Assembly: GCA_964545575.1 (NCBI GenBank)
Contig: CAZJFL010000001.1
Location: 153,896 to 217,895 of the forward strand
DNA length: 64,000 nucleotides
DNA from: an uncultured Planctomycetales bacterium
GTDB taxonomy: Bacteria; Omnitrophota; Gorgyraeia; Gygaellales; Profunditerraquicolaceae
Reading direction: 5' to 3'
Shown here piece by piece: positions 1 through 63,900 of the stretch. How positions within the stretch are numbered: position 1 is the stretch's first letter; each line of letters opens with the position of its first letter. Below the pieces are notes generated by a model, which saw only the letters and a list, made by a program, of their open reading frames with translations, did no database searches and had not been told where the DNA came from. Position numbers and translations under genes: made by a program.

Positions 1-900
1 AGTAGCGGCTATGCGTAGCCAGGGTGAACCGTGATATAGTTGCGCCAATCTGCCTAATATATCTGATATTACAAAGCCCGCATGTGCGCTAACACCGAAA
101 TTCGAAAGTACTGCGTCCAAAAAAAGTGAAGAAATAGCGATAGGAATAATTAATGAGAAAAAGAATGCGCTAGGCTTCTTCTTAAGTAAGGGTTGGCCAT
201 AAGGAGCAAATAGGATAAAGCCAACGGAAATCAGGTAACCAACGCTCAAGGTAACGATATCCCAATAATCACCAACATAAGTCTTGGGATTCGGATAAGC
301 CTTAGCTATCTGGTTTAGTTCAGCTACTAATTGCAGCCCTAGGTGAAGCGTCATCAAAGCTATTCCTATAAGAGCTGTATCCTTGAAGACTGAATCTAAC
401 TCTTCAGAGGATTTAGACATGGCTTTAAGTAGCCTGCCTATAAGATCAAGAATAAAGAATAAAATGGCTCCAAAACCCAGAGTAATTAGCAAATCGTTAA
501 AATGTGAAGGGATTAACGGTGAGAAGGAATTAAACAAAGAATATAATTGCGTGTCTTTAGCAAAAGATCTCCAAGCAGCAAGAACTAAAATTACTATCGA
601 TATTGAATAATAAAGCCATACCTTGATGTTTACCCTGCTACTACGAAAATAGGCAGAGATTCTAATCAACCACCCCCTGGTTGTGGTAATTAAAATTAGA
701 GGTAATGGTGTCATGACAGCTGCGCTAAGGAGAGTGATTGCGGATACGATAATAACCGCCAGCCACGGCGGACCGGTGAACTGCAAGTGCTTAAGGATTT
801 CCTGTGTATGCGGGGACCCAAGCTTAAACATCGCCGATCCGGAAATGCCGATGCCCAGAAGCGGGGTTAACAATTCAAGCAGGAAGAAGCCGGATGATTT
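1..900 (-). other. Membrane region with several transmembrane helices, the most C-terminal part in the window
   Basis: Verified translation of 1-960 gives successive hydrophobic helices, for example KSSGFFLLELLTPLLGIGISGSAMF, PPWLAVIIVSAITLLSAAVMTPLPLILITTT, WLYYSIVILVLAAW, LGFGAILFFILDLIGRLL, ALIGIALMTLHLGLQLVAEL, VTLSVGYLISVGFILFAPYG and FFFSLIIPIAISSLFLDAVLSNFGVSAHAGFVISDILG. It is preceded by a Pro/Ala linker LQPPAAPVPARPK at about 905-960. Confidence 0.5.
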
Positions 901-3900
901 CTTCGGGCGAGCGGGCACAGGGGCGGCGGGCGGCTGTAAAGGTAAATCTTGATTAATCACAGAAGTAAGATATCCGCGCAATAGCCGGCAAAACGGATCA
1001 TCATCGTCTGCCTCCTGCGACTCAAAAGGATAATCTTCTTTTAAACCATAAAATCCTCCATTATCATCATACTCTTTAAACTTCTGCAGCAGACTCTCAT
1101 CGCTTGTAATATGATTATCCTCAATAAATCTTTTATTTAGTATCTGCTTAAAGCCTTCTAAGCCACCCTCTGACTTAACAACATCTTCATCGGCAAATTG
1201 ACCTATCGTTCTATCTAAAACATACCAGCGCGAATCGCCTTGTATTTTCACCTCCACACAACTATGCCTCCTTATCAAACCTGGGTTTTCTTTCTTTGAA
1301 TCGTAATAACTTACTCTGACCGCTGTAATAAAATCCTCCTTTCTGAACCTATCGCAAATAGCATCTTTCCAATCTCTGCACCATCCTCGTAGCTGACGGC
1401 CCCTTTTACCCCTAATAGGCTCTTTGCATCCAACAACTAAACATTCTCCAAGAATAAGTTTTAGGGATGGCCAGAAGGGATTTTCCTTTAGCGGCGCAAG
1501 GGCCACGAAATCATCGCTGGAACAGGATTCCCGCCCGCCGTTTGCGCCGCAGCCGGGCGCAGGGGCGCGGTTAAAACGGTCGCGTTTGACAAAAGTGCAA
1601 ATAAAGGTGAAGCTATACAATACTACCAAGCAGTAAAGCGGCAGATCGGTCAGCGCATAAAGATAGGCCAGGATAATCAAGGGGATAAAATTAAGGCGGG
1701 TGACGTACCAGATGTTTTTTAGCGGCGAGGCTTTAGGCATCTGATTAGTCCTTAAGAAATGCAGAACAAAGAAGAGCCCCCAGGCAATCACCGTGGCCAG
1801 GCGGATATCCATAAAGAAAGCTAAGGCTAAATTCAGCCCCCAGAAAATCCCTTGCTCTATCCGCGCCTGTTTTTCCAGAGGAATGCCGTGCTGCATCAGG
1901 AAATAACTTAGGGCCGGGATCATACCGGCGCCAGAATTATTATCTTGTCGCGACGCTTGCGGCTCGGGCGCAGGGGCGGCGCCCTCCTCCCGGCCGGCGG
2001 CACCGCTGCCAGGCCGCGGCGCCTGAGACTGATATTTATCAATCCTTACCGCTAAGCCTAAAACCCTACCCTCTTTATCCCTGTTAATGTTTTCTAGTAG
2101 ATGCGGATTTTTCTCAATAAATGATTCCTGTAATCTCTGGGCTTCTGGAGTATTTAAAACAGGAATATGCAGGCTAATACCGGGGATCTCCCCTATATAA
2201 AACTTTCTTACGCCTATCTTTTTCAAATAAGCAAAAACCTCATCGCGCAACAGGCTACCTATACCTTTATCCCGCCAGTCGATGCTCACATAGATGCCGT
2301 CTCCGAAGGCTACGATTGCCTCTTCTAGCGCACAAACATAAAATTGATAAGCTGCTACCGGAGTATTTTTGATAAAGGCGATTATTGCATCCTTACCTTC
2401 ATAGCCGACCTTGGACTTAAACAAGCATACCGAGGAATAACGCCCGAAGAATGTATCGCCTGCCATGCTATCTGACAAATCTTCGGGAAGTTCGCTTAAA
2501 AGATAAAATCTTAAATCCTCAATTTCATCGCTCCGGCCAGAGTCGAGCGCAGGGGCAGCGAGCAGAACGGGAGACTCAGTGTCCCTATAGAAGATTTTTT
2601 CCCAGAACCTGGGGTCAGCCTCGTAAAGAAGAAACTCTTCGTCCCTGTCCAATACAAAGACGCTTTGTCCGTGTTCATGTTTTCTGATCAGGTAATCTAT
2701 AACGCTGGCAAAGAAATCTTGTTCCTCTTTAGTGAGGGGGTCATTTTTATTGAAATACGAATCGCCAAATACATACATCGCAAACTTATCACAAAAGAGC
2801 TCTTCATCAATATCCAGTTTATAGCCGTGCTGGAGGTGTTCGTCTCCTTGATTCTTTCTCCAATCAGAAAGAAAGCCTTCTCTCTTACAAGCTGAGCCAA
2901 ACCTATGCCTTAGTCTTTGCGGTATCAATAAATAAAGCACGTATCCGACCTCATGGTAGAAGCCATGCTCTTCTATGCTGAAAAATATTTCCTCCGCATC
3001 CTTATCTTTTGGACTTAGGCCTAAAGAGTGAAAGACCGTCCATAAAGCATTTACGCCCTGATCAAAAGTAAGGTCGAGGAAGTTGATTTCTGCAAATATA
3101 CGCTTGCCCTCTGCAATATCCATCGCTGCTCTTACCATGCCTATGGGAGCCCGGTTCACATGAGCATCTTTAGTTAAATTCGCAAAATTATAAGTTAATC
3201 CTTCCTCGAATATAAACGGCAGAATACGATAAATCCTTTCTGCCCAACGCTGTATCTGTCGCGGACGGAATTGCCTGATAAAACCTGCGCGCGGGCTGTC
3301 CAAAGGCACCGGTAGGCCAGAGTGAGATTCAAATTCTCTTCTTAGCCTAACCATAAGTAAGGCCATTACTTCTTTATCCAGTCCTTGCCGAAGCAAAGAT
3401 TCCTTTACTTCTTGAAACATCAATCGCCTGATATAATCCTGGCTGCCGTATCTGGCTTGGGTGCTTTGAATATAATTCCTATCATCCGGCGTAGAAGCAG
3501 ATGATGGTTCAGCAGGGGCTATCCCTGCCCCTCGGCTTCTAATAGGTATAGCGGGGATGGTTTTAGTCTTTAAATCAAACCTTAAGTCTCCTTCTTTGGT
3601 CGGTTCAAACCCAAGCGGGATATAAAAATTTTCTGCCTTCCCCTTAGCCGGCGCCAAAATTAAAAATTCACTGTAGCCATAATGTGTTGTTAACTCTAAC
3701 GCTTGGGTAATTAAATTAGAGCCTATGCTGCGAAACTGGTATGCGCTATCTACAAAAATGCCTTCCTTGGCTATAACGCGCCCTTTACCATCGTAAGCAG
3801 TACCGACTAAAACGGTAATGCCATCATCCATCAGGGAAAAATGGAGATAGCCGATAGCCTCACCGCCATGATTAACTTCGATTATCCCAACGCTCCTATG

Positions 3901-6900
3901 CGAGCATCTATTATCGTTGATGGCGATACTCCGATAGCAAAAATCAAACTTCTCCCCGTCTTCGGAATTAATAGTCAAGCGGCCTTGCCTGGCTAAAGTT
4001 TCCCCTATAGATAAGCGGTTAGTGGCGCGACTCCCCTTGCGCTCTGCAATAACTCCCGGGCAGCCGGGCCGAGTTCTTATTTTTCTTAAAACAGCTAATA
4101 TTGTATTCCCGGTAACCGCATAAACCCACCTTGTACCATCGAGGACTTCTGCCTCGTATACGATAGCGACTAATTTTCCTTTATAGAATACTGAGGCGCC
4201 GCAAATCCCACCGTGGTTTATCTCGGTACCGGTCGTATCTATCTCCAGGATATCCCTTGAGCCGTCGCTACAGAGCACTCGGCGTGCAGGCACGGTAACT
4301 ACATCTTTATAGCAGAATCTATTTCCGCTCCTGGCCTTACTGTAACGTATGAATGGGATGACTACTTCAAATTCGCCATCAAGGGGCGGAACGCCTATCT
4401 CTAAAGAATCAAATTCGGTAAGGTAATTCGGCGCAGGCCCTGCTGGGCCCGCAGAGGGGGTATAGGAAATGCTCGAAATGTATATGACCCCGATATCTTT
4501 GCCGGACTCATCGCAACAGGCCAAGATCCTTCCCATGGCAAAAAGTTTATCTTCTGTAAATTCCGCCATGACCAGGTCTCCCGGCTTCACCCGATGCCCC
4601 ACGGTCAAGACAAAAGCCGCATCCCTGGTTGATCTGATAATCGTCCCCTGATATAAAGTACTCTGGTCTACATCCTCCAGCCCAAGGATGCGCCGTAATG
4701 ACCTGTTTCTTTCTTCGCCTGCGACAAACCCTCCGTCTCTTTCCTCTGCCACCTGCGGCTCGGGCGCAGGGGTGGCGGCAGGCGATAATTTAGGATCGGG
4801 TTTAAACGCTACAGCATCACCTATTCCCTCATAGCCTTCTTTTACCCACTTCATGCGCAGTGGGAGAATGTCGTTCTCTATCCCTTTCTTTCCTCCTTCA
4901 TGCAGGCTATATATTAATGAACGAAGGCTATCGCAAAATTCATCAAATTTCATATCGCAGGCATGATCAGTTATACAACTTAATTTTCCTTCATATTGTA
5001 ATGTAGAGAAGTCTATAAGGAGGACCTTTCCGTTTGTGGTAATGAAAATATGCCGTAGGCTAGAATCGCCGTGAAAAATATGTAGTTCGCGATTAAGGAT
5101 CCCATAGACTCTGCCGATTTCCCTGAAAAAATATCTTTCGTTTGCTAAGAACATCTTGCGGTAATATCGATTACGACGATGCTGATCATCTATAACTTCT
5201 TCGAGGGAAAGGCCATCGCTGATCTCGCGGATTAGTAAAGTGTCCGCCACAACAACGGACGGCGGCGTAATCCCTCTCCGGGAAGCCTTGAGGGTTATTT
5301 TGTATTCGAGTGCGGTGGGGTTACGACGTTTTAGATTTGATGAATGGCGTAGTTTTGCGTAGAAAGATACTGGTCCTTTTTCTGTAGTAAGGGTAAATTT
5401 AAGAACGTATCCGAATATATCTGCTCTTTCGTATAGACCTCCTGGCCCTTCTTCTCCCGCAATCTCATGGGTGCTAGCCAAGATCTTTTTTACTCCGAGG
5501 AACTTTTTAATCGCTGCTTGCTTGTAAAGTATGCATTGTACTTTCTCAGCTACAAACGGTTGCTTTTCCTCATCTACCAAAAGCATTCCAATAAACCGAC
5601 TTATCACCGGCGGAGCGCGGGGACGGCGAGCTCCAGCCATCAATAGCCCGCCGACCAAGAGGCCAAGGATAATTCCTGCCAGAATCGGATTATATATTCC
5701 GTCGGCAAATAAAACCAAAAGTACGACAACGGCAGGCAAGCGGGCAATGGTGGCAGATGAATTTGTGCTGCCGGTTTGCGGCGCCTGCGGCCGAGCAGAA
5801 TCTGTGGGCTTGGCGCGGTCAGGGGCGGCCGCAGGGGCGGCGGGATTTGACTCTGACCAAAATGCCCGTAAATAACTTATAGGAATCTCTGGGTAGCGAT
5901 CGTATAAGACCTGATATTGCTGCTTGATCTTACGCAGGCGTACAAGGTCTGTACTGTCTAAAGAATATAACCTTATTTCTTTGACGACCCTTTTCGCCTC
6001 TCGATCCTGTATTAAAGGCTCGAGTGGCCTATCGTTAAGCTTGGCGACCAGCAGTCTTTCAATAAGTTTGAGTCGGTCTAAATCCCCAAAGAAACGTTCA
6101 AACTCAAAATCTTCTTTTCCAAATAACCAGGCCCACTGCAATGTCGCTTTGATCACCTCGATATGCGCGTGGCGAGTAAAACGCACAAAAATCTCATCTA
6201 CCAGGTCTGCCTCATCTACCGCCGCCTCAAATACCTCATGCGCAAAAGTAACCGGCGTATTTACGCTACCCTTAATATAATAAATACCCGACCCCTGAAT
6301 CTCGGGGCAGGCGATAATAGCCCGGAGTTGTGCCGGTTCGAATACGCCAGCGGAATTCCTATCGCGATAATATTTAACTCTTTCCCATACCTGAGAGTTA
6401 ATGTAAATCGCCTGCGTATGCAGATTATAGTCGCCACTTATTTCTTTGGCCCCTAATCTCCTGCCTAATTCAAGCGGATTTTGATTTAGAGAAGGCGCTT
6501 CTTCCAGGCGAACGGCCTGTGCTAGCTTGCGCCAAGCAGTGGCTATGGCTTCATCTATTTCCGGACAAGAAGGAAATAGTCCTTTCCACTCTTTTATAGG
6601 CATACTCCTTCTCTTTTTTGGAACAATTGGCGCCAATACTTCCTGACTATTATCACCCATGTTAGGTAAATGAACGTGGCCCGGCGCAGGGGCGGTAGAC
6701 GGTACGGCTGGAGACTTCTCCCAAATAAAATGCCATGATCCCACAGGCTCATTCCTGAACCCTCGCTTCAGATAAAAATCAGCCATTATCTCATCGGGTT
6801 CTCGGCCACTTTCATCTTGAACAAGAAAAAGAGGAGTATTAATCAAGGTAATGCGGCTAAATTTATTTTGGCAGAATTCTATTAAGGATCCGGCTATACC

Positions 6901-9900
6901 TCTATTGCGGTATTTTGGATGGACAAAGAAATCATCGAGAGAGACTGCATGAAAATCTTTCAGTGTATATACCAGATAACCAAATACTGTTTTGATTATT
7001 GGATCGACAGCTGCAATTAAATGTGTTATGCCACTCAGTAGCTCTTGGGTTCTACTTTCCAGAATATCTAAGTCAGAGTAACCAGGATCAATTGTTAATG
7101 CCTGACCGATACCTTGTTTATCGTATACAAAAATTATCTCTGGTTTAAGTCTTTCTCTCCCTTTTGGCTCAGGGTAAACGGCCACAGGGGCGGCGGCTCG
7201 ATTTTGCTCTGGACAGGCAGGTGAAGATAATCTCTTTACAGAAACATAAGACAATATTTGTGTACCGGAACAAACATCAACCCAGTCTAGGTCTACCGGG
7301 AAACGCTCAGAGAAATCTTGCCTGCGCCAGAATCTACGCGTGTTTCCTTCATCTACGCATGTGCCGTGAAGTAAAATAATATCAAAACCGCATCTTCTTA
7401 AGTATGGCTCAATAACTCTGCTATACCAAACATAACCTACTCCTTTACCGCGTAAAGAAGAATGGATCTCAAGCTTTTTTATAACTGCCATCCAATTAAG
7501 ATTGTAATAAGACCTTACTGATTTTTGACCGCCTGCGATGCCATGTATCATGTGCTCGTGGTAAGCGCTCGCATCGTTCCATAATACATCCCGAAGAAGA
7601 TCGTTAAGTTCACAGTCACCGTAAGCGATTCCCAGGGTATTTTCTACGCAGAGAGTCAAAGAAGCTGCTTCGCATTCCTTTTCAGCGGCCTCTCCTTCCC
7701 TCTTAAATAATAAGGAAAGGCTTATTTCGCCTTCTTTATAGACGGCTACCCGCGTTTCTAATCTTCCCTTCTCGCCTGTATCATCCATTACTTTTTTGAT
7801 TTCTCGGTACGGCAAAAGGCTATCTGGAGCAATTGTCAAGTCAAACTTTGGTTTTCCGCGCGCATCCTCTATTCTATCGGCGGGCGCAGGGGCGCTGTCG
7901 TCTTGCCTGGCCATTGCCAGCTCAAAACCAACAAAGCAGCCCATTGCGCCGCCTATAGGAGGAACAGGTGCATGATAGGGTAAAGCCAGCGGCACTATGA
8001 TGGTTCCGGCATAAGGATTACGCGAATTATATATATTTCGTTTTTCCGGGTCACTAAGCACCAGATAAGCTTCGATAATCTGACGCATGATTTCTCCCAG
8101 GCGCGCATCACTCTGGCAGATATCCGGATGATAGCGTTTGGTCAATTTTAAAAATTGCCCCTTAATCTCATCCGGAGCGGCATCCTTAGTAACCCCTAAA
8201 ACCCCGTAATAATCTTTTTTGTAATCCGCCTGGACGCCTGCGAATAAATCCCGATACTCTTGTTTAAGCCGCTCGAGCCACTTCTGCAATTCCCGTAACA
8301 TATCCTCGGCCATTATCTGGTCTCTAACCGCCTGCCGTAATAAAGCAGCGCTCTGTTTATTTGAATGCCGGGCATAGATATTTAAAAATAAACCTATAAC
8401 CCCAAAGATACCTCCTAAGATACCGAATAAAAACATAATCTCTCCCAGAGACGGCGCGCCTGTGGCGCCGACGAAACTGAAGACTATAAGGGCACCAAAC
8501 ATGGCCAAGAGGATGCGCTTGGCATTTTTATAGAGCCAGATGATCGGCTTGACTACCAGCCATTTAAAGACCAAGCCCGCCAGTGCCGTTACTCCGCTTT
8601 CCAGCAAACCTCCCTTTTCTCCCACGCCGGGTATCTTATCCGTTGCGTGTGAAATTGTGCTCTTGATGATATATTGTGCCAGCTCCGGATGGTCCTTACT
8701 GATCTCTAATGGCGCAGCTGCCAGGCCAAATGTCGGGACCAAACTCCAGAAAAGAGCCAAGAAATACTTTGGCCTGAAAGCGAAGACGATTAAAGAAACC
8801 ACAAACCTGAAGGCAACATCAATCGCCTCAGGGATTAACCAGCCCCACTCCGCCTTCCCCTGAAAAATCAGCGTCTTCAGGAATGCAACCATTCCTCCGG
8901 CTCCGACGATGGGCGGATTAACCACGCCTAAGACCCCCTTGAGAATTACATGCAGGCCGAAAAGAATAATCATATCGCGGTTATCTTTTGCCTCCATTTG
9001 CCGCCTTAATGATTGCGCTTCTTTTTCATCCAGCCGCCCGCTTTTTAAATCTTCGTCTATCCATTTATTGATGAGCTTTTTGGCGTAGACCAGGATCTTA
9101 TCGGGAATGGTCCTAACCCAGCGGAATATAGTAACGAATTGGTGAAATAATGCTTTTATCTTCCCGGTAAATAGATAAATCAAGGCCTGCTTCAAATGAT
9201 ACAGGGTTTGTTTGAAGGCGTAGTGAAAAGGAATGCATAGCGCCCTGACTTTAACATCAATATAGTCGCATAATTGCCAGAAAAGATTTAATAAATGCCG
9301 GGGTAAACTTTTTAAGGTCCTAAAGAGATACTCCCAATCAAAATGCAACGGTTCGCTTTCCCGCCACATTTTCAGGTAATACACCAGCCTCTGGAAATCC
9401 TCTTCTCTGCCAAGTTCGAGATGGCTGTCCACGTAACGCTTCAGCCGCTTAAGCGCTACTAAATCAGCAAAGACCGGCGAGCGACGGTTCAGTAAACCGA
9501 TGACCCAATATTTTATCTCCCACGGAGTCGCCACCACCGAACCCACTAAATCCATTATCCTGAAATCCCCTCCGGCGGTTTTTACGATATTGGCGAGGCT
9601 GTTCAGGTTAGCGCTATCTATCTGGCGGCCGATGCCGATAAAACCTAATTCTCTGACTAAGAAATCATAAAAATCAGCCGCCCTGTGCCTGAACTCGCTG
9701 ATATCAGAGAAACTATGCCGAACGATGCGGCACCCCTCCAGAAGCTGAAATGCCTGGGCATAGCAGCCGGCTTGGCTGTCATAATAAGTAAAAAGTAATT
9801 CCGGCGTTATATTTGCGCCAAATTCCTGCCTGAAGGCGCGGACAATAATCCTGTTGGAGAAATGGTTAGCCAATACTGCCCAGAGATTATTTTCATAGGA

Positions 9901-51900: not shown

Positions 51901-54900
51901 AATTTCCTTAATCAGCCGGCCATACTGCAGCGGTTTTTCGCGCAACCCTTCCTTAATATACCTGATGTATTCTGCCAAATTGAGGACAACTAACCGAGCG
52001 GCGCTAGCGTCGTCATCACGCAGCGCTTCCCTGCCTCCGAGTAAATCGCTGTCGGAAATTACGCCGTAGATTTGCTCGTAAGCGTAGGGAGTCCTGTGCA
52101 TTGGTGGACAAACAAGCTTAAATTGCGCATTCCATTCTTTGCTTTGCACATCATAGGTAAGCAAGATAAAATATAACCTGCCTCCTTTCTCAATCACGGT
52201 GACAAAGCCGTATTTTCTTAAATCCTGCACATCCCTGGCCCTAAAACTTAACTGCACACCTAAATCTACTGACTCCTGCCTTAGCATCTCTAACCAAAGC
52301 CTTAACCCAAAGGCCTTGCCTTTAAGTTGCTCTTTCTTTAGGTGGTATTTATCTATTAATTTAGCTATCCACACTTCAAGATTGATGTCAGGAAATACGC
52401 GCGATAAGGCAATTAAGCCGCAATTTCCCTTGAGTGCCTCTATAAAAGCTGCTCTTGCGGCGGCTTCTTGCTCGGCTTTTACCTCTTTCGCTTGTTCGGC
52501 TATTCTGGCGGCTTCTTGCGCGGCTCTACCGGCGGCTGCTTCATCAATCCGGCGTGCGGGACTTTTAATTGTAGGCACGCGCTCTGCTTGCGCTACATCT
52601 CGAGTAGAAGAAAGCCTTTCTGCTGTTACCTCTTTACCTTTATCATCCCTACCAACCATCACATGGCCGTTAATCAACAATTCATCGATATTCCATCCTA
52701 TAAATTGATGTGTTTCCTCTTCATCGAGCAGACGATACCAAACCTCGCCCGGCTTAAGTACCTGAAGCATTAAAACCGGCTCGTTTTGGCCGGTCTCTGT
52801 TGAACTCTTCTCCATCATATTTGCTCTCATTATCGGATCATCGGGACTCATCCCGTCGGGAGTCTGAAATATATTCCCCATTCCATGGTTGGGGAAAAAC
52901 CGCGGAGAATTGTCATCCATCCGGCAAAAACGACAATCACGCCAACATTTAGAGGGTTCAATCTGAATTGCGCCGCAAGGCGCGCCGGACAATTCAATTG
53001 ACCGGGGGATATCTTTTCGGCTCGTAGTCGAGGCAAAGAAAATCAAACCAAGCACTTGTTCGCCGGGTACTCCTGCCGCCTCTAAACTGGCGATGATCGG
53101 CCCGGCAGCTACCTGAATAGGACTTCGATAAATTATTGGCGGATTTGTATCCCAAACATCTTCTCCTAAGGAAGCAGTTTTATAAACTCTCCTAAATCTT
53201 AATCCGGCAAAAATAGCGACCCTGGCTAAAACTATCGGCCAATCGTCTACGGGCATAAGACCATAGACTGGCTGCCCTGCTTCTTGAAGAAGTAAATCTA
53301 TTTCCGCCTGAAGGCTGTCTTTATATCTCTCAAGTGTTCTGGATATCCTCCTATATTGTTGACATAATTCTAAATGCTTCTTTGGTTCTGCTTCTAGTAT
53401 TATTTGGCTGACTATTTCTCTGTATCTTGCTGCCTCCCCTGCTTTACGTTCCTGTCCTTCCTTATTACCTTGCCCTTCTGCCTTCTTACCCGCCCTTTCT
53501 GCCTCTTCTGCCAGCTGCAGATTTCTTTGGATTATTTCTCTATTCTTTTCTCTAACTTTGCCCGCCGTCGCCAGAGACTTCTTAGCCAGTTCTCTATATA
53601 CCTGCGGCAATAAAGGTAATTCTGCCAAGAGAGACAGAAGAGTAGTGTGGTCATCGGTCTGATTTTCCAAGAAATGAATGAACTCATCTAATAGGGCATC
53701 CCAAAGAAGTTTCTTTAATCGGGGGTCTTCTTCTTTACCCATCAAATAATTCCAGAAAATCGGATGTAATCTAATGATTGCTAATGAGGATTTAGTGGCG
53801 GGAATAAATTCGGCAATATATCTTCTGCCTGTTTCGTCTATTTGGGTGGTTTGAGCAATCTCAATAACTACTCTTTCTTTATATTCTTGCTTCCGCCGTA
53901 ACGCGTCCTCTAAAGGCGGGGCGTGAATCAACATCGGTAGCAATTCTTCCAATAAGACCCGGCGAATACTTTCTGTTTCATCGCCGCTTAAATTTCCGGT
54001 GAGCGCCTTTAAGCCTACCTGCCAGTTGCTACTTATCTGCCCAAATCTGCAGCGAAGTTTTCTGGGAGTAAAATTATCATACCGGGCATCCCGCGTAATC
54101 CCCACCGGGTGGTGGCCGGGGCCGGGGCCGGCCGGCGGCTGGCTGGCCGGAGTAGTTTTGGCAGCCTGCCCGGTAACCTGTTCAATGGCCTTACCAATCA
54201 GTGCGATGGCTTTCTCATACTGTTCACCTGTTGTATTATATGCGCCGAAGCAATTTTTTATGCTTGCGCGAGCAAAAGAATGGATTGTGCAGCTCTGCGG
54301 CAATGACGCCCCTTTAACAGAAGATATAAGGGAATCATTCTTGCTCAGGAGCACGTAGGAAATGAACCTGTCGATCTCGAATAATGCCTTGTCTTCTGCC
54401 AGGGCAAGAAAAATAGCGAATGACTGCTTTCCTATCTCCGCCATAAATAATCTTACCTTTCCTTCCGGAAACAAACGGCAATCCAAATCCAGCAAAGCCT
54501 TATTTTCGGCAATCACGAAATACTCTGCTTCGGGGCTTTCCCTGATAATCCGCTCAATGAATCTGGAGTAGATAGCATCCTGGCCTTCGCCTGCGACCAC
54601 AAGGCTAATCCTCTCTGGTCCGATTTGATCTATTAGCCATTGATAGGCGAATTTGCTTTGCCAGGAATAAGAGGGGTTGCGAAAATCGCAGTCAGTGGCA
54701 AAAAAGCAAAGGGAAAGATTCCGGTGATAAGCTAAAAATGCCGCTATTACCCTGGCTGTATCCGGGCTAATGTTAGTTTTGCCTAAAGGAAAGATGACCC
54801 TGGCCGCTTGGAACCCCGGCTTAAGAAATGTCTCCTTGATGTAACTTAAGGCCTTTTCTCTTTCGACCACTTCTGAGTTTTCCTCCACAGCGATAACCAT

Positions 54901-57900
54901 GACCATTGCTTTCCTCTCCCCGAGGGCCGGCAAGGTCTGGCCACGGATAGACAGGGAACTGCGCAGCTCGTCATCTGTTAATGCCTGCTTGAGGTTATAG
55001 ACCTTGCCTTTAAAAGTAAAGGATATTTTGGCGGCTTCTCTTTCTCCCTCGCAATGTATGGCGTATACCTCGTAAAGTTTGCGCAAAATTTCCCACATTG
55101 TCTGCGTATCAATATCTCGCCTATTATCGGCATCAGGGACTATCGGCTGTACGACTTCCGCAAAGAAATCATAATCCTTCTCTCTTTGCAAGCGCTCCTG
55201 CGCTTCTAATACGCTGATACGGTCTAATTCCGGAAGCCGCCCTGTCTCTAACAGCTGCTTCACGGCCTGGGATAAGTAAGCGGCCGCCGAGTCAAGCAGC
55301 TGCGATTCAACCTGAAAACAGTCTTCTAATTCTCTGATCTTGTTGACTGTTCCTAACCCGTCAACAATGGCTACAAAATTATGGAAGGGGATCAAATCCC
55401 TGCTTTTTGCTGCCAGCAGCTTTCTTGCCCAATCCATCATCAGCGCTATCTCTGTTGACTGGAGGAAACTCACCTCTTCCGGCTCTGCGACGAATAAACG
55501 CTCAGTGGTAAAAATACCGTTTCTGGCGGCATTTACCACCAAATTGAGTTCCTCCATCATGGATTGCTGGTCAGGGATAAACCAGTCGTCATCCAGTAAA
55601 CTTTGGTAAATTGCGTATGTTTCTTCATCCAATGACTCCCGCAATATAGCCTGTACTTCCTCCCTCCTTTGCGAAGATAGCTTTGCGGTCCTGGAGTCAA
55701 GCAGGCTATAGCCCTCAAGAATCCCTGCCTTGTCTCCTAAGCGGAATCTGACATACTTTTCCACCTCTTCCTGGGCAACAAATATCAAGATGCGCCGAAT
55801 CCCGTATTTAAGCGCCATCAATTTAGCAAATACCACTCCATAATTCTGCAGCGTAGCATTTACGACCGCTGATGCCCGCGCTAATCTGGAGGTAATCGCC
55901 GGGTTATCGTGGATTTCTAAGCTTCCCAGGCCTGATCTCAATTCTTGTATTTGCTTAGTGAAATTAGCAGATGCCGGCCTTAATAGCTTAAATAACGCCT
56001 CTGCCCCTCCCAGGACAACGGCGTTGTACTCATCCATATCTGCGTATTGTCTCTTAACGTCGCTCCGCCCCGCTTCAAGGACTCGGGCTATAAAGAGGTT
56101 TTGGAACTGCGGGTTACTAGCAGCCTGCTCCCCAAACATGCTGATTCGATTCATGCCTGCAGCAGCTAACCTTTCTTTATATGTCCTTTTAGTAAAAGGC
56201 AGGATACGCTCATAAAAATCTGCCAGTTTTGCTTGCACTATAGCCACTTCCTCGGGCTTGATGGAAGCAATCTCTTCATCAAGAAAAATACCGATTACGC
56301 CTACTTCTCTCTCGATAAAATCCAGCGCCTCACGGAGCTCATCTCTTTTACGTGCATCAAAATCCAGCCAGGCCCTGTTGACGGACCCTCTGAGCGTATT
56401 GAAGTGTGTCCTTGTTGCGGAGGTAACGGCGCACAAATGCTCCCGTCTTTCCAGAGCAGCTACCGCCTGTTGCAGGCGCAGATAAGCGGCGTCTTCTGCG
56501 ATATTGCCTAAGTCTAAATCAAACCATTCCTGCCTCAGCGCCAACAGCCTTCCTTCTATATCCAAGAATTGGCTGACCGGCTCTAGCTCAGCTGCGATTG
56601 ACTTTTTCTCTTCATCAAAGCGGGCGCGCGCTTCTATCTTGGTTAAATCCGCGGCTTGCGTGCGGCAGCCCGTTAACACCTCTCTCAGGATAACCTTGGC
56701 AGTATCCCCCAGCAGGGATTGCGCAGTTAACCCGGATAATCTGGCAAGCAGCTGCTTGATTTGTCCAGCTAAGCTTTCGCTGGCATGCCTCTTGCTCCCC
56801 TCAATCTGGTCTATTGCCTGCAATGCTAAATTCCTGATCTCTCTCAGGCGGGCAAGGGCATAACCAAAAGTCTCTGCATTCGGTTTAGCATAGAATTTAT
56901 CTAATTGCTGGCCTACTGCCTGCCAGAGCCTGAGGCGGTTGATGATCCCATGCGCTCTCTCTGCGTCAATTACCCCCCACCTTCTGCCTAAGACAACCAG
57001 CGCTATAATGCGCTGCTTCATATTCAAGAGCCGCTTTTCATCATCCTTAAACTTGGAAGCCATTATTTTACTGTCAAAACCCCTTCTGCCCCGCCTGTAG
57101 AGATCTTTTTCTTTTTGCTTTGCTTCTTCGGCCGCCCTGGCAGCGTATATTTTCCCAACTACACGCATGATCTCTGCGGAAACTTCTTTTTCAAAGAAAA
57201 ATTCATGGACCCAGGCCAAGCGTTCTTTCAATCGAGGGAGTACGTCGGGCAAAACCATCTCTTGCATCCCCTTCAGGCGTTGGTCTTCAGGGATACTCCG
57301 ATCAGCCCAGAAATCATCGATCAGGAGAAGGCTTCTAGTTCCCGCTTCTCTTCTAGCGCCCTGCAGCTGGGCGGCAAGGGCTACTTCTTTAAAATCGTCT
57401 TTCTGGCCCTGGTCAAAATCTTCTGATTCTACCCCTACCAGTTCATCGATGGCTTGTTGGAGAGGGATAAAACGGCCCTTTTCTATTTCTATCGGAGTAG
57501 CGCCGATCTCTCCCAAGCCCTCCAGGTATAAAGAGGAGTCAACTGCGGGGCCCTGCAGGCTTCTTAATAAATTCAGCGCATCTTCGCCGGCGGTAGGAGA
57601 CCAAATATTCTCTTTACGCTCATGCGAATCTATCAGCGCCAGGAAAATAGTCTTCAGCCCCCGGTTTACCACATAAAATATGGCTGCGGGTTTGCTGAAA
57701 TGGACGTGTCCGGTTAATAACCCTCCGGGGGTACCACTCAAGGGATCGATTACTTCTTCTGCCTCTATCCAACGATGATACAGGCGCAATATTCTTTTAC
57801 CAACTTGCTGCTGCGCTTTCGGCTCTAATCTTTCCCAGTATTCCATAAATGGCAGGGTTCTGGCAAAAACCGGATATTCGGCCCTGTCGATGGCCCCTTG

Positions 57901-60900
57901 AGACAATATCGCTCTCACGCCCATCTTTTCACCCGCGCCCGGAACAACGCCGGCGGGCTCAACTTGTGTATTTCTTTTAACCAGTTGCAAAACCTGAGGC
58001 ACAAAATCCTTAGGCAGTTGGCCTTCGTATCTGCGTAAGGCCTCCTCAATTACGCCTATCTTGACATCCGGGTCTTTCTTTAGTATAGAAACGAGGATTC
58101 TGCTTACATCGCGCGGATAGGGAAGGCGCGAATTATCAGCGGCACAAATCTCAAAAATAGTTTCCACGACTAGCATTCCTCTTTTTTTGCCTCCCATTTC
58201 AGATAAAGCGTCTGCTGCGGGATCACTCCAATTGCATTCATTAGCCCAAGGGCCGCGATAAGAACTCCACAACTCTTTAGCTGCCTGCTTAACCAGCGCA
58301 TCAGCCCCCGGTATTCTCGCTACTACCTGCGCCAGAGCAGGTATTATCCGAACAAGACAAATATTATTCCAACCTTCCTGAGGATTTACAAAAGCGCCTG
58401 CGCGCCATAACGTTAAAGCCTCAAAATATGCCTCGACTGCTCTCTCGCCCCCTATTTTAGCTAAGGCCTTAACTGCTGCCTCTTTAACCGCGGTTTCCAG
58501 GCCTCTTACCGGGTTGCGGCATAAAAAGTATTTCAATCTACTCACCGCTCTTTCATCCCCTATATTACCAAGCGAAGAAATTGCCGCAGGGATAAGCAGC
58601 CGCTTATCTTGCTCTCTCTTTAAAAAGCCTAACCAAAAATCAAGCAGCGCTGGATCGCGCATATTAGCCAAAGCATCTGCTGCTTGCAAATAGGCTTCAG
58701 GCAGGCTTGTCCCAAGCTTCAAGCCTCGTCTCACTATTTCAATTAAAGAATCAGCTACTGGCGCCCCGATTTTACTTAAAGCCTCTGCCGCAGCCTTTGA
58801 TAATCCATCCCTGATATCAGCCTTAGAATCATCCTTTAGCTCAAGCATATTCTTCTTTAAAGCCTCCAATAAATCTTCCTTTGCTTCCATAGCACGCAGT
58901 TCTCCCAGCGCCTTGGCGCTGGCAACAAAAGCATCCAGGCCTTTATGAGCCAAAGCATAATTACTATTGTGCATACTCTCATTCAGGCTAAATTTCAAGC
59001 ATTCCAGCAAAGTATTGATTATTCTTTCTCTTATTACCAGCCTTATTTTAGCCAGCGTAACAAATTTCGGAATGACTGCGCTATCTACAGTCCGCACAGG
59101 CTCCTGGCGTAAGGGAGACGAATCGTGCTGCACGTACAAGGCAAAGAAAAGGCAGCTAAATCTATAAAGTGCATCCGCCTTAAAATGATCCCCAACCAGA
59201 TGCTCAATTGCTTCGTGGATCAATATTTCTCCTAAATCGGGCTGTTTATCCGGCGCCTGGAGGAGGCTGTAGAAATCATGGCTGATGCAGAAGACAACCT
59301 TAAGGAGACCTTCTATTTCTAATTCAACTAAACCTGAACGATAATCTACTCCTAAATCCACTACCCAGACTTGATCGATACGCTCAGGCAGGGCGAGCTG
59401 ACCTTGCGGACCAATCACTTCCCCGCAGATCCTCTTTAGCATAGGCCCGGCTGCCTCAAATTCTTTATTAATCATCTCTCCTAAGGCCGAAGTAACATCC
59501 TGTTGTTTCTCTGTGCCGATTGTCTCTTTGATAGCGGCGATAAATTCATCCCTGGTGCCGGGAAACGCACCATTATGGCCCTGACAAGGAGCAGAGGGGC
59601 CAGCTGGCGTCCGGCGGCTGGGGTCGGCGGCGGGCAATGAGGAAACGTTCAAGCTCCTCGCCATAGGAAAGATGAAGTCAAAGAAACTATCATCCGGGCA
59701 CCCATCATTAAGCTGCCTTGTTGTCCCGAAAAATCCTAGTTTTTTCCAGAACCTGCTCGTCTGCGCAATATTATTACATGTCCCCCAGAAAACAACGACT
59801 TGGAAACCGCATCGCCTGAAGTAAGGCGCAAGGTGATCCTCAAACCATAGCCTACCGATACCTTTGCGCCTTATTCTTTCATCAAGCCGATAATAAGTAA
59901 TCAAGGGTATCCACTTTAAATTATGATATGTGATTATCCACATCCTTCCCGGCCTGACAGCCGTACGTACGCTCTTTGGTGTCCAAAGCAAATCTTTTAT
60001 TTCTTTGCCATACCATTCAAGTGGCTGAGCATCCTCTTGCCCAACACCATCGATTTCTAATTTGTTTGTAGCATCCACCTCTACTTCAGCTATTTTTCCA
60101 CTTGATCCCCTCCGTCTAACTGTTATATAAGCTTTACGCTGTTCAGTAATTTCAGCCTCTACTTTAAGCTGTTTTATCCCCACGCCCAAGGCCCGGGCGA
60201 TTTCCTTAAGAGGAGCTAAGCTTTCCAGGGGAATTGCGCTATTAAAAGTAATCCTCTCGGAAGAACGTAACTCTAACGCCGTAACAAAATGGGACCAGCC
60301 GCCGCAAAATAACATCTTATCCATAATTACCTGTGTCATCTCCGGCCGCTGCAAAGCGCAATCTGCCAGAGGAACTAATGCCTCATCGAGACGCCTCTTA
60401 AATTCAGTTATCTCGGACGCATAACGCCTTTCATGGTCAGACTCTCGGTTATGGCTACACAAAAATTCAGAATACTCCCAACTTCTTTCACGATAAACAG
60501 CGATCAGGGCATCGACATCAACCACTGCGGCGACTGGCTGCCGACCGGCGCGGGCAGGGCCGCTGTAAGCCTCCACCACCTCTGCTACTGTTTCTTCCCT
60601 GGGTTTCGCAATATAAAATTTCTGCCTGAGGTCAAATTTTAAAGTCGCTGCCAATGCCGCGGCTCTTGTGTGGGCAGCGCTACCTTCAAGGCCTTCCTCG
60701 ACCCTGGCTAAGAAATGTCCTATTTCATGCTTTAATATTTTTTCGCTCCCCCCTTTTTCGACGACAACAGAAAATACGTACTTTTCAGACGACCGCCACA
60801 TTCTGTAACTATCTTTCACCAGCACCCCGCCGCCCCACCTGCTTAAGCGGCCTGGTGAAAATTCATAGACTCGAATTTGATAGCTATCCTTCTGCCCTTT

Positions 60901-63900
60901 TATTTGGATAATCTTAACATCACACGGCACATTCTGTTTTAAGTCCACGGCATCACCCGGATTGACCTTATTGTTATAGGCACCAAGCACCTGGCCGCGG
61001 CCGGGGCCGGCTGGCGGCTGGCTGCTTGAGCCGGTGCCTGACAAGACGAGGCCGGTGTTGCGCGCCAGGAGAGCGGCGGAGATTTGATATTCATTAAGTG
61101 TATAGCCTCTATCCGAGAATGTGCCGTTAAAGGTAAACCCTAACTTTCTATGCAAGCTATTAGTCGCCAGATTGTCTGCTAAGGTTAATATCACTAACGT
61201 CGGCTCACTGCTATGATCAAGCAAGAAATAGCGCGGGCCCTGTTGCGCATAATCAAAAGGCAGGACCAATTCTATGCCGTTGGCCTCGCAATATTCTTTA
61301 ACCTCCCTGAATATCGCCAGGTATTTAGCCAGGTCTTTCTCTTTGGGCATCAGGGATTTTCCCATATCTTGCCCGAAGAAATGTAAGCCGACATTGGCTA
61401 ATGCGCCGATAATAAATACTTTATCGCCGGGCTGTAATCTATTCTTGACGATTTCCAGAATCCCGTCGTATTTATCGAACTTTGCGCCGCCAAAAATCGC
61501 CACCCACGGATGCTTAGCGCTCTTTTCGAAGGCGCTGATTTTAGCCATCTCGGCCTGCGTATATTCTCCTGTCCTGCGGTTTCCCGCGGCAAAAAGATTG
61601 ATCATTTCTATCGATGCTTCTTTGGGGCGATGCCATTTATCCACTGCCTCAAAAACATAATATTTTGCCCCGGTCAGCTCGATGATTCTCTCGGCAAAGG
61701 CCTTTCTCTCGGCGGCATCTTTGGATTTCTCCTGCCGATAGAATCTGACATTTTCAAAGATAAAGATTGCCTTGGGATATTGGCGCCTGGTTTCGGCAAT
61801 CTGCTTTTGGGCGTTATCCAGGTCAAAATCTAAAAGCACGACCGGAATATCTATACCTTCTGCGGCAAGAATCTCTTTTAATCTGGCTGCTACCGGCTTA
61901 AGGCTGTATTTTTCTTCAAAGCCTTCTCCTTTGGGCCGGCCCATATGCGTCATCACAAAAAGGTAATCAAGTTCTCCCAGCGATTTCTTTATCGTTGGGA
62001 CGGCCTGCCGGATTCGCTGATCGTCTCGGATGGCGCCTCCTTTATCCAGAGAAACATTAAAATCTGCTGCCAGGATCGCCGCCTTCTCCGGCGTATTCCG
62101 CTTACCCGCCACCGCTGCAACGCCCATCGAAACCGCTTTCGCCAAACCTAAAATAAAAACGGGCAGGATAAAACTGAAATCTAAATGCGCAGCCGGCGCT
62201 GGTGCCTGATTTGCGGCAAATAATAAATTGGGCAATAAGAGAATTGTGCCGATAACAAAAGGCAGGATGGATTTCAGATACCGGCTTGCCTCAAGGCCTT
62301 TGCCTGCCGGCGCTAATTCCTCTTTCCTAGCTTCTGCCAATTCATTTTTCCGGGCTTCTACCAACAGACGGAACTTAGCCAATAAAAGTTCCAGGTGCGG
62401 AATCGAAGAGTCTACCTTGTGCTCCACCTTGCGTTGCCCGGCCTCATAATCGTCTGTAATTACCTCTTGCTCTTCTTGCTTCTCTTGCTCCTCCTCCATA
62501 AGCTGCCAGAAGAGCCTCGCTGGCCACTCTGCTATAATCTTTTCTTCGCGGTAATAGAGGCAATAGCCGATGAACTTCCTGATTTCTGCGGCGTACAGGC
62601 TGAATCCCCGCGCATCAAAATATCCTTCGGTAAGGATAAACTTCAGCCAGGCCGCCTCCAGGTAAGTGAGCTCTAAATCATATCCTACTTCTTTTAAAGA
62701 AAAGTTAACCCCTGTCCCGGCGCAGAATATCTCCACGGCCTTTTCCGCGTAGGGCTCAAATAAACCGCGCAGCTTCGCTACAAAATCCTGCCAGATTACC
62801 AACGCCGGAGCAGCAACCAATCTTTCTTCATCCGCTATATAAGCCCCGGCAGGATTAAAATAATAATTAAGCAAATGCTTTGCATTCTGATAGATGCGGG
62901 CAAAGGAATCTCTTCTTAAAGTAGAAAACTCGGCATCGCACCTATTTGCCTGCGCCAGCGCCCGGTGCATTGTTTTCTCAATCCGCCGGTAAAGTTCTCC
63001 GGTTAAACGGTGCGAGATTTTATCTTCCGTAACATAAGCCAAGAAAACCTTTACGCCTTCTAAATCCAAACAATACGGCTCCCTGCCTACGGCTGTTGCC
63101 ACTGCCTGTTTTACCAAATTCGGATGTTTTATTGCGCCGCCTGCATCCAGCGCTTTTATGCCGCAGAGAATAGCGGCAATAAATCTTCTCTCGTGATCGT
63201 AAAGCTTGGCATTGATTGCCTGCTGTTCCGGGTTAGCCTGATTTGCTTCCTGCTCAAGCTCCGCCAGCGCTGCCACTGCTGCCTCATATTTAAGCCGGTC
63301 TTGCCTGTCCGTTCCTACTGCCGCCGCAATAAACCCGCCCATCGAAAGCGCTTCCGCGGCAGCTAAAATAAAAAGAGGCCAGAATAACAGATTATGGCGG
63401 CTGGCTTCGCTGCGCCTGCCTTTAAACAAAGGATACAGCGCTACTAATAATAAAATTCCGATAAGCGCAACCGACAGCACCCAATCATAAGAAAACAACT
63501 TGGATAAAAGCATGGCCAGTTGCGCAAAAGGATCTACCTTAGGAACCGGATATATAAGCCCTGCGTAAGCCGGCAAAACAAATATAGGTAACAGCATTCC
63601 GGCAGCGATTGCCCCGGCGCCCGGGCGGGCGGCTTTCTTTTTTCGAAGAGAGGGACGCCTCAGAAAAGAAAGCATGCGTATGCCGCTTATTCCGTCAGCG
63701 TCTAAAGTCCAATCTTTTCCCGGGTCAAATCCCAGAGACTCGAAGAAATTCTGCGCCCGCTCTTTTGCCAACCTGCTATCTTTTGTCTCGCCGGCAGATA
63801 AGGGGTTGGCTTTTAAAAACCAAGCATCCTTAAGGTATCCTTCAGCTTGCGCCAATAATAAATACACAAAAGCCCTACCTAAGCCCAAACCATGGTTTCC

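Follow-up and report, generated by a model that had tools for sequence, protein, structure and literature searches.

Few features of bacterial genomes are as poorly understood as genes longer than 60 kb. In this paper we examine one such gene, located in a stretch of 64,000 nucleotides (hereafter the window) from an uncultured bacterium placed by GTDB in the Omnitrophota (assembly GCA_964545575.1, contig CAZJFL010000001.1, positions 153,896 to 217,895). A single open reading frame (ORF) without stop codons fills the minus strand of the window, and its product, here called the giant, carries hydrophobic helices and enzyme-like domains in turn along one chain. The question raised by this locus is how such a chain is arranged relative to the membrane. 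An original prediction, made from the letters of the sequence, described a multi-anchored membrane mega-protein and offered two options, namely that the chain is threaded through the membrane with domains sorted to either side, or that the helices are recognition or cleavage sites from which membrane-anchored products are released.

The general description agrees with our results, in that helices of transmembrane (TM) grade lie outside soluble folds and within one uninterrupted ORF. As to arrangement, we lean towards co-translational insertion of a chain that hairpins staple to the membrane by entering and leaving it on the same side, with most of its enzyme-like domains on the cytoplasmic face. 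Coordinates are those of the window, and features lie on the minus strand unless stated; residue (aa) i corresponds to window position 63999-3(i-1), and residue numbers rise as window positions fall.

One reading frame and its hydrophobic helices

The ORF (window 1..63999) holds 21,333 codons and no stop over 64,000 nt, where about 1,207 stops would be expected from base composition; six-frame translation gave 689-1,531 stops in each of the other five frames. It is open at both window ends, runs past both edges and measures at least 63,999 nt. Guanine occupies 34% of first codon positions, and by this measure the giant frame ranked top of the three in 42 of 42 consecutive 1.5-kb windows, which indicates that it is coding throughout, linkers included. 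The first 100 residues resemble the tail of another domain, and position 63,560, which had been given as the end coordinate of the alternation, is the last helix cluster and no gene boundary, the ORF reaching the window edge. The window covers an inner 64 kb of a genuine minus-strand gene that runs uninterrupted for at least 21,333 codons.

Helices were called with a 19-residue Kyte-Doolittle (KD)/Hessa scan, and a call was taken as credible (stringent) at a Hessa sum of 3.5 or less with at most one charged residue. By this definition 41 of 52 lax calls were credible, at about 20 sites in 21,333 residues, and helix density was one per 410-520 aa. The scan recovered all ten helix clusters of the original prediction and the three copies of a repeated module, and it added six sites (aa 5513, 5863, 7133-7185, 13492, 14402 and 15539). 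Contrary to the original claim, the alternation of clusters and soluble domains is irregular: clusters may be as close as about 250 aa or as far apart as about 3,600 aa. The proline-rich linkers that were said to take part in it do exist, 11 being counted where shuffles gave 0.8, but no more than 6 of them come within 50 aa of a helix.

Because the giant is hydrophobic in general (40% LIVFMA), helix counts were compared with those of composition-preserving shuffles. The excess was small at a KD threshold of at least 1.6 (54 helices against 39.7); at KD of at least 2.2 there were 18 helices against 4.0, and at a Hessa sum of 0 or less 15 against 1.5. Uncharged runs numbered 21 against 2.8 at 25 aa or more and 13 against 0.5 at 30 aa or more. 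Of the 52 lax calls, about 11 probably represent buried helices, as at aa 7876 and 10659, directly before HExxH motifs. Applied to soluble proteins, the same caller made no credible call in 48,238 residues of 120 PGKs (LIVFMA fraction 0.42), and in a second control it made two in 25,328 residues of 17 other long proteins. An AlphaFold2 (AF2) model of aa 17190-17760 placed six hydrophobic segments as long helices outside the HAD fold, with two helix-turn-helix pairs; the HAD fold had a pLDDT of about 90, and confidence in the helices was low, as expected for a model made without an alignment. Burial of the hydrophobic stretches in the cores of globular domains had been named as the outcome that would overturn the membrane reading; on the strength of the soluble-protein control, together with the AF2 model, we reject it for the main clusters.

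That the ORF is not one functional gene at all, being either an artefact of assembly or annotation or a stop-free array of cistrons with internal starts and buried hydrophobic cores, we regard as very improbable. The giant is absent from the 5.8-billion-protein database and the contig collections searched (see below), it contains an exact repeat of 160 nt, and about one in five of the lax hydrophobic calls is no more than chance would give. Chimeric joining or an indel error, however, would break the frame, and the count of stops in 64 kb is zero against the hundreds to more than a thousand of the other frames; the coding signal is uniform along the ORF, soluble controls yield essentially no TM calls, and catalytic motifs are intact. 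Shine-Dalgarno sequences paired with start codons were found at 12 of 606 sites in frame and at 22 of 626 in the +1 frame. As these sites are not enriched in frame, an array of internally initiated cistrons was rejected, and internal initiation in the giant ORF appears unlikely from its sequence.

Composition offers the same picture on a coarser scale: the GC skew of the + strand is negative in 32 of 32 2-kb windows, the coding strand being G-rich, and GC content is steady at 44-50%, a uniformity that fits one long coding unit free of compositional breaks. The only complete ORFs of at least 150 aa in the window (10796-11401, 52199-52708 and 57167-57676) all lie on the + strand and, being antisense to the giant, are probably chance ORFs. 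Rfam and tRNA scans of the window were empty or trivial. A tandem-repeat scan of the window returned seven tiny arrays; there is one dispersed repeat of three copies, and internal protein repeats are few.

Anchors, soluble domains and the side of the membrane

The commonest anchor of the giant is a tight helical hairpin, of which there are eight, with loops of 2-17 aa; so tight a geometry returns the chain to the side from which it came. An even number of credible helices was found in 8 of the 9 complete multi-helix clusters, and seven of seven even-numbered clusters orient N-in/C-in by their count of lysine plus arginine (K+R). The eight tight hairpins carry 0.066 K+R per residue in their loops and 0.158 in their flanks (Fisher p=0.065). 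The positive-inside rule, which the original prediction would have applied around each cluster, is followed by the seven even clusters and falls short of significance in the comparison of hairpin loops with flanks. We propose that each hydrophobic hairpin would be inserted co-translationally as the chain is made, through the signal recognition particle (SRP), SecYEG and YidC, and that, by entering and leaving the membrane on one side, it would act as a staple. The set of domains on the cytoplasmic face would then comprise an HPD-bearing J-domain, a HAD of beta-PGM type, a GT4, a UbiB/ABC1 kinase, GNATs, an ARMT1 phosphatase and a PGK-like module, and a smaller share of the chain, between single-pass helices, may be exported.

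Along the chain the anchors begin with a three-helix cluster at 63319..63609 (aa 131-227), the second and third helices of which are paralogous to the next anchor, a hairpin at 62104..62268 (aa 578-632) that has a K/R-free loop of 17 aa and K/R-rich flanks and stands directly before the PGK-like domain. A four-helix cluster at 50704..51210 (aa 4264-4432) opens with a tight hairpin paralogous to aa 7124-7164. It is followed by two single strong TM helices, at 47407..47463 (aa 5513-5531; Hessa sum -1.9) and 46357..46413 (aa 5863-5881), each with a Pro-rich linker before it and the latter with the first copy of an uncharacterised domain (HExGE, below) about 70 aa after it. Next come a hairpin at 42445..42603 (aa 7133-7185) and a cluster of two to three helices at 37345..37605 (aa 8799-8885), which leads into a Pro-rich linker. 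The hydropathy scan placed the helices of the repeated module at 32716-32772, 26005-26061 and 14857-14913 (copies 1, 2 and 3), and between the last two lie single TM helices at 23470..23526 (aa 13492-13510), 20740..20796 (aa 14402-14420; strong, Hessa sum -2.4, between two weak winged-helix (wHTH) matches) and 17329..17385 (aa 15539-15557).

A four-helix cluster at 11710..12348 (aa 17218-17430), with 3, 1, 7, 3 and 3 K+R in successive loops, supplies long helices outside the HAD fold in the AF2 model, and on the other side of that fold a hairpin (aa 17701-17745) and a single helix (aa 17894-17912) occupy 10264..10899 by hydropathy scan and AF2. A cluster of four to six helices at 8383..8973 (aa 18343-18539) precedes the J-domain and has a tight hairpin as its last element. 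The last three sites are a hairpin at 5629..5760 (aa 19414-19457), with a loop of 6 aa and RRPR on its C-terminal flank, a TM pair at 1588..1818 (aa 20728-20804), and a cluster of six to seven helices at 106..888 (aa 21038-21298) that the window end possibly cuts.

Some of these anchors are related to one another. Self-comparison paired aa 179-229 with aa 582-632 and aa 4265-4311 with aa 7124-7164, and it showed aa 5493-5551 and 5841-5864 to be paralogous to the two ends of the cluster at aa 21026-21328. Three sites (aa 5547, 17279 and 21076) carry the pattern GPP[AW]L 15-18 residues after a TM helix ends; it marks a family of paralogous anchor modules and not a general junction signal. The module that occurs in three in-frame copies, at 32512..32787 (aa 10405-10496), 25801..26076 (aa 12642-12733) and 14674..14919 (aa 16361-16442; a 92%-like copy), encodes two helices, the first hydrophobic and rich in Thr (ITTIITTIT), the second amphipathic. 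Copies 1 and 2 are identical in DNA over exactly 160 nt (32630-32789 and 25919-26078), 6.7 kb apart and with sharp borders, which suggests that they arose by recent duplication or gene conversion inside the gene. An exact repeat of this length is a hazard for assembly.

Soluble domains were identified by Pfam and NCBIfam scans over the whole translation. About 14 distinct families are present in the window, none of them dominating, and over half of the residues match no family; a PDB sequence search with aa 1-10,000 gave nothing beyond the Pfam result. The J-domain, PGK and GT4 named in the original prediction were all found, the PGK in truncated form. This PGK-like domain (61243..62088; aa 638-919) retains the N-domain and the GGAK motif and lacks every nucleotide-binding and hinge motif after it, GLDIGP, WNGPMGVFE, GGGDS and STGGGASLE among them; because nucleotide-binding motifs are absent, a canonical active PGK was rejected, and the domain is probably not catalytic but a ligand-binding remnant. 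It is followed by a GNAT-like tail. The GT4 glycosyltransferase (Glycos_transf_1) lies at 35965..36459 (aa 9181-9345), the J-domain at 8026..8214 (aa 18596-18658), and a HAD hydrolase of the beta-phosphoglucomutase family at 11080..11625 (aa 17459-17640; 143.9 bits, pLDDT about 90). An ABC1/UbiB-type kinase-like domain matches at 26542..27165 (aa 12279-12486), within about aa 12210-12577. Signature or catalytic motifs are intact in these last four domains, being E-x7-E in the GT4, HPD in the J-domain, DxDG and GDxxxD in the HAD, and HxDxHxGN in the ABC1 domain.

Other matches comprise HEAT repeats (58429..58701; aa 1767-1857), TPR repeats in Pfam (49381..50454; aa 4516-4873), an ARMT1-like damage-control phosphatase domain (34783..35484; aa 9506-9739), two GNAT acetyltransferase domains (6754..7023, aa 18993-19082; and 3607-3900, aa 20034-20131), the two weak wHTH matches (aa 13745-13800 and 15067-15122), a HAD-IIB fragment (aa 16624-16689) and a weak Bud32-like kinase match (aa 19558-19684). 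The scans found no dockerin, TSP3, lectin, Ig-like, CBM or adhesin domain in the window, and the lack of extracellular types (dockerin, lectin, Ig-like, CBM) counts for the cytoplasmic reading. Cytoplasmic placement would likewise be favoured by the J-domain, HAD, GT4 and ABC1, whose motifs are intact and which depend on partners or cofactors of the cytoplasm.

The opposite arrangement, in which an N-terminal signal and single-pass helices put most of the soluble mass outside as a coat or effector acting on prey or host surfaces, has the published reading of the closest class of giants (V. archaeovorus and the Archaeovorins) on its side, where HEAT, GT and glycolytic-like domains were predicted to be extracellular (bioRxiv 10.1101/2023.11.21.568195, PMC10066038). 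About nine single-pass helices of the giant would switch sides. The arrangement also draws on a second uncharacterised domain (46525-47244; aa 5586-5826; HAHGTN...SGES...PSNID), which lies between two single strong TM helices with Pro-rich linkers on either side and has relatives in proteins whose only anchor is N-terminal (P0150). Other relatives of this domain carry no signal at all (P0174, P0196), and it was dropped as a marker of exported loops, its relatives occurring both with and without N-terminal anchors; among them are an Omnitrophota protein from a metagenome-assembled genome (MAG; UCG35688.1) and a fusion to a calcineurin-like phosphoesterase. An extracellular location would leave the J-domain (Hsp70, ATP), ABC1 (ATP), GNATs (acetyl-CoA), GT4 (NDP-sugar) and wHTH with no obvious function, and the predominance of tight hairpins with K/R-rich flanks speaks against a coat, as does the failure of Pfam and NCBIfam to find any adhesin, lectin, dockerin or hydrolase domain suited to one. 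The authors of the giant survey themselves doubt such extracellular predictions (bioRxiv 10.1101/2023.11.21.568195). We consider a mainly external giant rather improbable.

Several results nevertheless weigh against same-side stapling with a cytoplasmic bulk. The helix calls rest on a hydropathy heuristic, and the databases searched hold no close homologue with which helix conservation could be compared. The K/R bias between hairpin flanks and loops is a trend. Helix parity between presumed cytoplasmic domains is at chance level, with five even and four odd among nine non-empty intervals; two of the odd intervals could be repaired by borderline helices, and the other two each contain one clean helix, that of the module at aa 10410 (between ARMT1 and ABC1) and that at aa 14402 (between the wHTH matches). 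The N-terminus lies beyond the window and may carry a signal peptide. Finally, published DeepTMHMM runs assign a large share of the mass of certain similar giants to the cell exterior (bioRxiv 10.64898/2026.06.07.730766), and dedicated predictors meet the same difficulty over sidedness in published giants (bioRxiv 10.1101/2023.11.21.568195). The hairpin-staple picture is supported for the clusters; any assignment of the segments between single-pass helices to one side is tentative.

Possible cleavage and the metalloprotease-type motifs

The anchors could also belong to a membrane-embedded polyprotein, in which TM clusters fix the topology and either embedded metalloprotease-like domains or host signal- or rhomboid-type peptidases release separately anchored enzymes. 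Such a scheme would make sense of the motif HExxH, which occurs five times against 0.41 expected, an enrichment of about 12-fold (maximum of four in 300 shuffles), at aa 1091, 7896, 10678, 11060 and 17312 (window about 60729, 40314, 31968, 30822 and 12066). Control patterns (H..EH, HD..H, HQ..H and others) gave zero occurrences in the giant. Four of the five motifs follow a hydrophobic helix, a zincin-like context, and one matches Peptidase_M48 (30772..30945; aa 11019-11076), but the match is partial, covering profile positions 27-87 of 186. Half of the Pro-rich linkers, which are themselves enriched, adjoin helices, separate orientation of the released pieces would resolve the parity conflicts described above, and cleavage has been put forward as a hypothesis for Omnitrophota giants (bioRxiv 10.1101/2023.11.21.568195).

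The uncharacterised HExGE domain bears on the same reading. It occurs twice, at 45637..46146 (aa 5952-6121) and 24439-24942 (aa 13020-13187), has invariant H-E, H and E residues (VHExGE...H...ATxLEF) and belongs to no Pfam family; a Pfam scan of eight relatives likewise returned no family for the uncharacterised domains. It is present in 60-odd other proteins of 238-4,610 aa, with up to 41% identity, and in the giant as well as in two relatives, P0134 and P0140, this conserved His/Glu motif lies about 65 aa past a TM helix, a placement that counts for the polyprotein. Its AlphaFold2 model (pLDDT 87, pTM 0.81), however, has no significant fold match in PDB and no match to a peptidase. HExGE may be a new metal-binding or hydrolase fold; that it is a protease is speculation.

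The helix boundaries also speak against processing. Conserved residues flanking the helices, which the original prediction had suggested as protease sites, did not appear, no recurrent pattern being found at the 82 boundaries of 41 helices, and a 5-mer scan found no repeated junction peptide apart from paralogous modules. GPP[AW]L was considered as a cleavage motif after the helix and set aside, its three sites belonging to paralogous modules and not to a general junction. No SecA-DEAD, C39, S8 or signal-peptidase domain was detected in the 21,333 aa of the window, and the ORF continues past both ends. There is no flanking cleavage motif, yet HExxH is enriched, which leaves room for processing; between threading with domains on both sides and cleavage, the two options of the original prediction, the data choose neither, with hairpins dominating and all but one of the complete clusters even.

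We judge the polyprotein reading unlikely as a whole. A still less probable version of it would combine both ideas, the hairpins holding the nascent chain at the membrane and positioning zincin-like (HExxH) and HExGE domains, which would cleave it in cis to yield dozens of separately anchored enzymes. If this were true, one promoter and one passage of a ribosome would yield a complete, stoichiometric and membrane-organised set of enzymes, a cellular counterpart of the viral polyproteins.

Relatives and comparison with known giant proteins

A word-indexed search of 5.8 billion proteins did not contain the giant, and its pieces aa 560-1000, 1401-2400 and 17200-19100 returned neither a self-match nor a giant relative. 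Matches to these three pieces were at the level of domains only, at about 30-37% identity, to HEAT proteins, beta-PGM HADs and ordinary PGKs of 400 aa; the PGK-like domain matched ordinary PGKs of many phyla at 30-37% identity with no taxonomic preference, and marker genes are absent from the window. No related locus was found in GTDB species genomes, JGI metagenome contigs or viral contigs with a 1,000-aa piece, the module alignment or the HExGE alignment. A HMMER search with aa 5500-6699 against 1.84 billion representatives gave 73 matches (best E=8e-19), all of a single domain, and the five relatives with a named organism comprise three Candidatus Omnitrophota MAGs (UCG35688.1, MDD5618777.1 and MCM8814251.1), one Patescibacteria and one Deltaproteobacteria MAG. 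P0140 (4,610 aa, from a JGI metagenome) and P0134 (3,765 aa) have the HExGE domain in common with the giant at 32-39% identity. They resemble it in the order of TM helix, about 65 aa and HExGE, and in alternating TM and soluble segments with one helix per 630-660 aa; they differ in being five times shorter, complete genes in ordinary neighbourhoods, with one domain in common.

Viral polyproteins of flaviviruses and pestiviruses are the familiar case of one chain in which TM segments alternate with soluble enzymes and fix the side of each domain. They have defined protease domains and conserved cleavage sites, and measure about 3 kaa. The giant exceeds 21 kaa, and neither such cleavage sites nor such proteases were found in the window. 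A self-cleaving polyprotein would be recognised by a protease together with a recurrent cleavage motif, and the window contains no such pair. The giant does not match the dockerin-type or tandem-repeat-scaffold class either, as the window has no dockerin or TSP3 and neither a Pfam family nor a nucleotide tandem dominates it; nor does it match the NRPS/PKS megasynthases, none of whose domains (condensation, adenylation and carrier; KS, AT and ACP) was found by Pfam or NCBIfam in the whole translation.

Among cellular proteins the nearest parallels come from the Omnitrophota, most of which carry ORFs above 20 kb that show little conservation and few annotated domains (Seymour et al. 2023, PMC10066038). 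The giant of Velamenicoccus archaeovorus LiM, as described there, is 39,678 aa long with 42 predicted TM helices, and proteomics has detected peptides from it (Kizina et al. 2022, via PMC10066038). On that description it is like the ORF of the window in being a giant ORF with many predicted TM helices, and its peptides show that such ORFs are translated; no sequence similarity between the two was detected. West-Roberts et al. (2023; bioRxiv 10.1101/2023.11.21.568195) reported giants of up to 85,804 aa, all with numerous TM regions. Their Archaeovorin class, for which cleavage was hypothesised, is rich in HEAT, GT, TPR, GNAT, HAD_2 and divergent glycolytic-enzyme-like domains, and most members carry divergent SecA DEAD/preprotein-binding domains. 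The giant shares with Archaeovorins an uninterrupted ORF of tens of kb, scattered TM regions, HEAT, GT group 1, TPR, GNAT and HAD domains, a glycolytic-enzyme-like domain that diverges strongly from its ordinary homologues, and a mostly uncharacterised sequence. It departs from them in having no SecA-DEAD, C39 or S8 in this 21-kaa slice and no homologue at the level of sequence, and its glycolytic-like domain is a PGK, which is not in the Archaeovorin list.

Nielsen and Lui (2026; bioRxiv 10.64898/2026.06.07.730766) described giants of up to 147,155 aa, 80% of which are singletons in sequence. Their TM-only class, 46% of giants, was read as inner-membrane-anchored proteins with cytoplasmic domains and has one helix per about 370-1,000 aa and no signal peptide. 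To this class, and to their multi-enzyme metabolic cluster, the giant is similar in its many Pfam families with none dominating, in its GNAT, HAD, GT1, HEAT and TPR domains, in a helix density within that range and in a unique sequence. Their topologies come from DeepTMHMM on full-length proteins, whereas ours come from a heuristic caller on a slice, and they do not report the hairpin-staple pattern, HExxH enrichment or a three-copy module.

The present locus adds testable points to this picture, namely the same-side hairpin as the usual anchor, the retention of motifs that would be useful only in the cytoplasm, and the enrichment of metalloprotease-type motifs without a recurring cleavage motif. 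These points sharpen, and do not settle, a dispute in the literature about whether such proteins lie mostly inside or outside the cell. The phenomenon itself is known from two preprints and one paper, and this giant is a sequence-unique addition to it. By its length, helix density, domain repertoire, divergence and lack of homologues, it best matches a membrane-tethered multi-domain giant of Omnitrophota type, either an Archaeovorin or a multi-enzyme giant.

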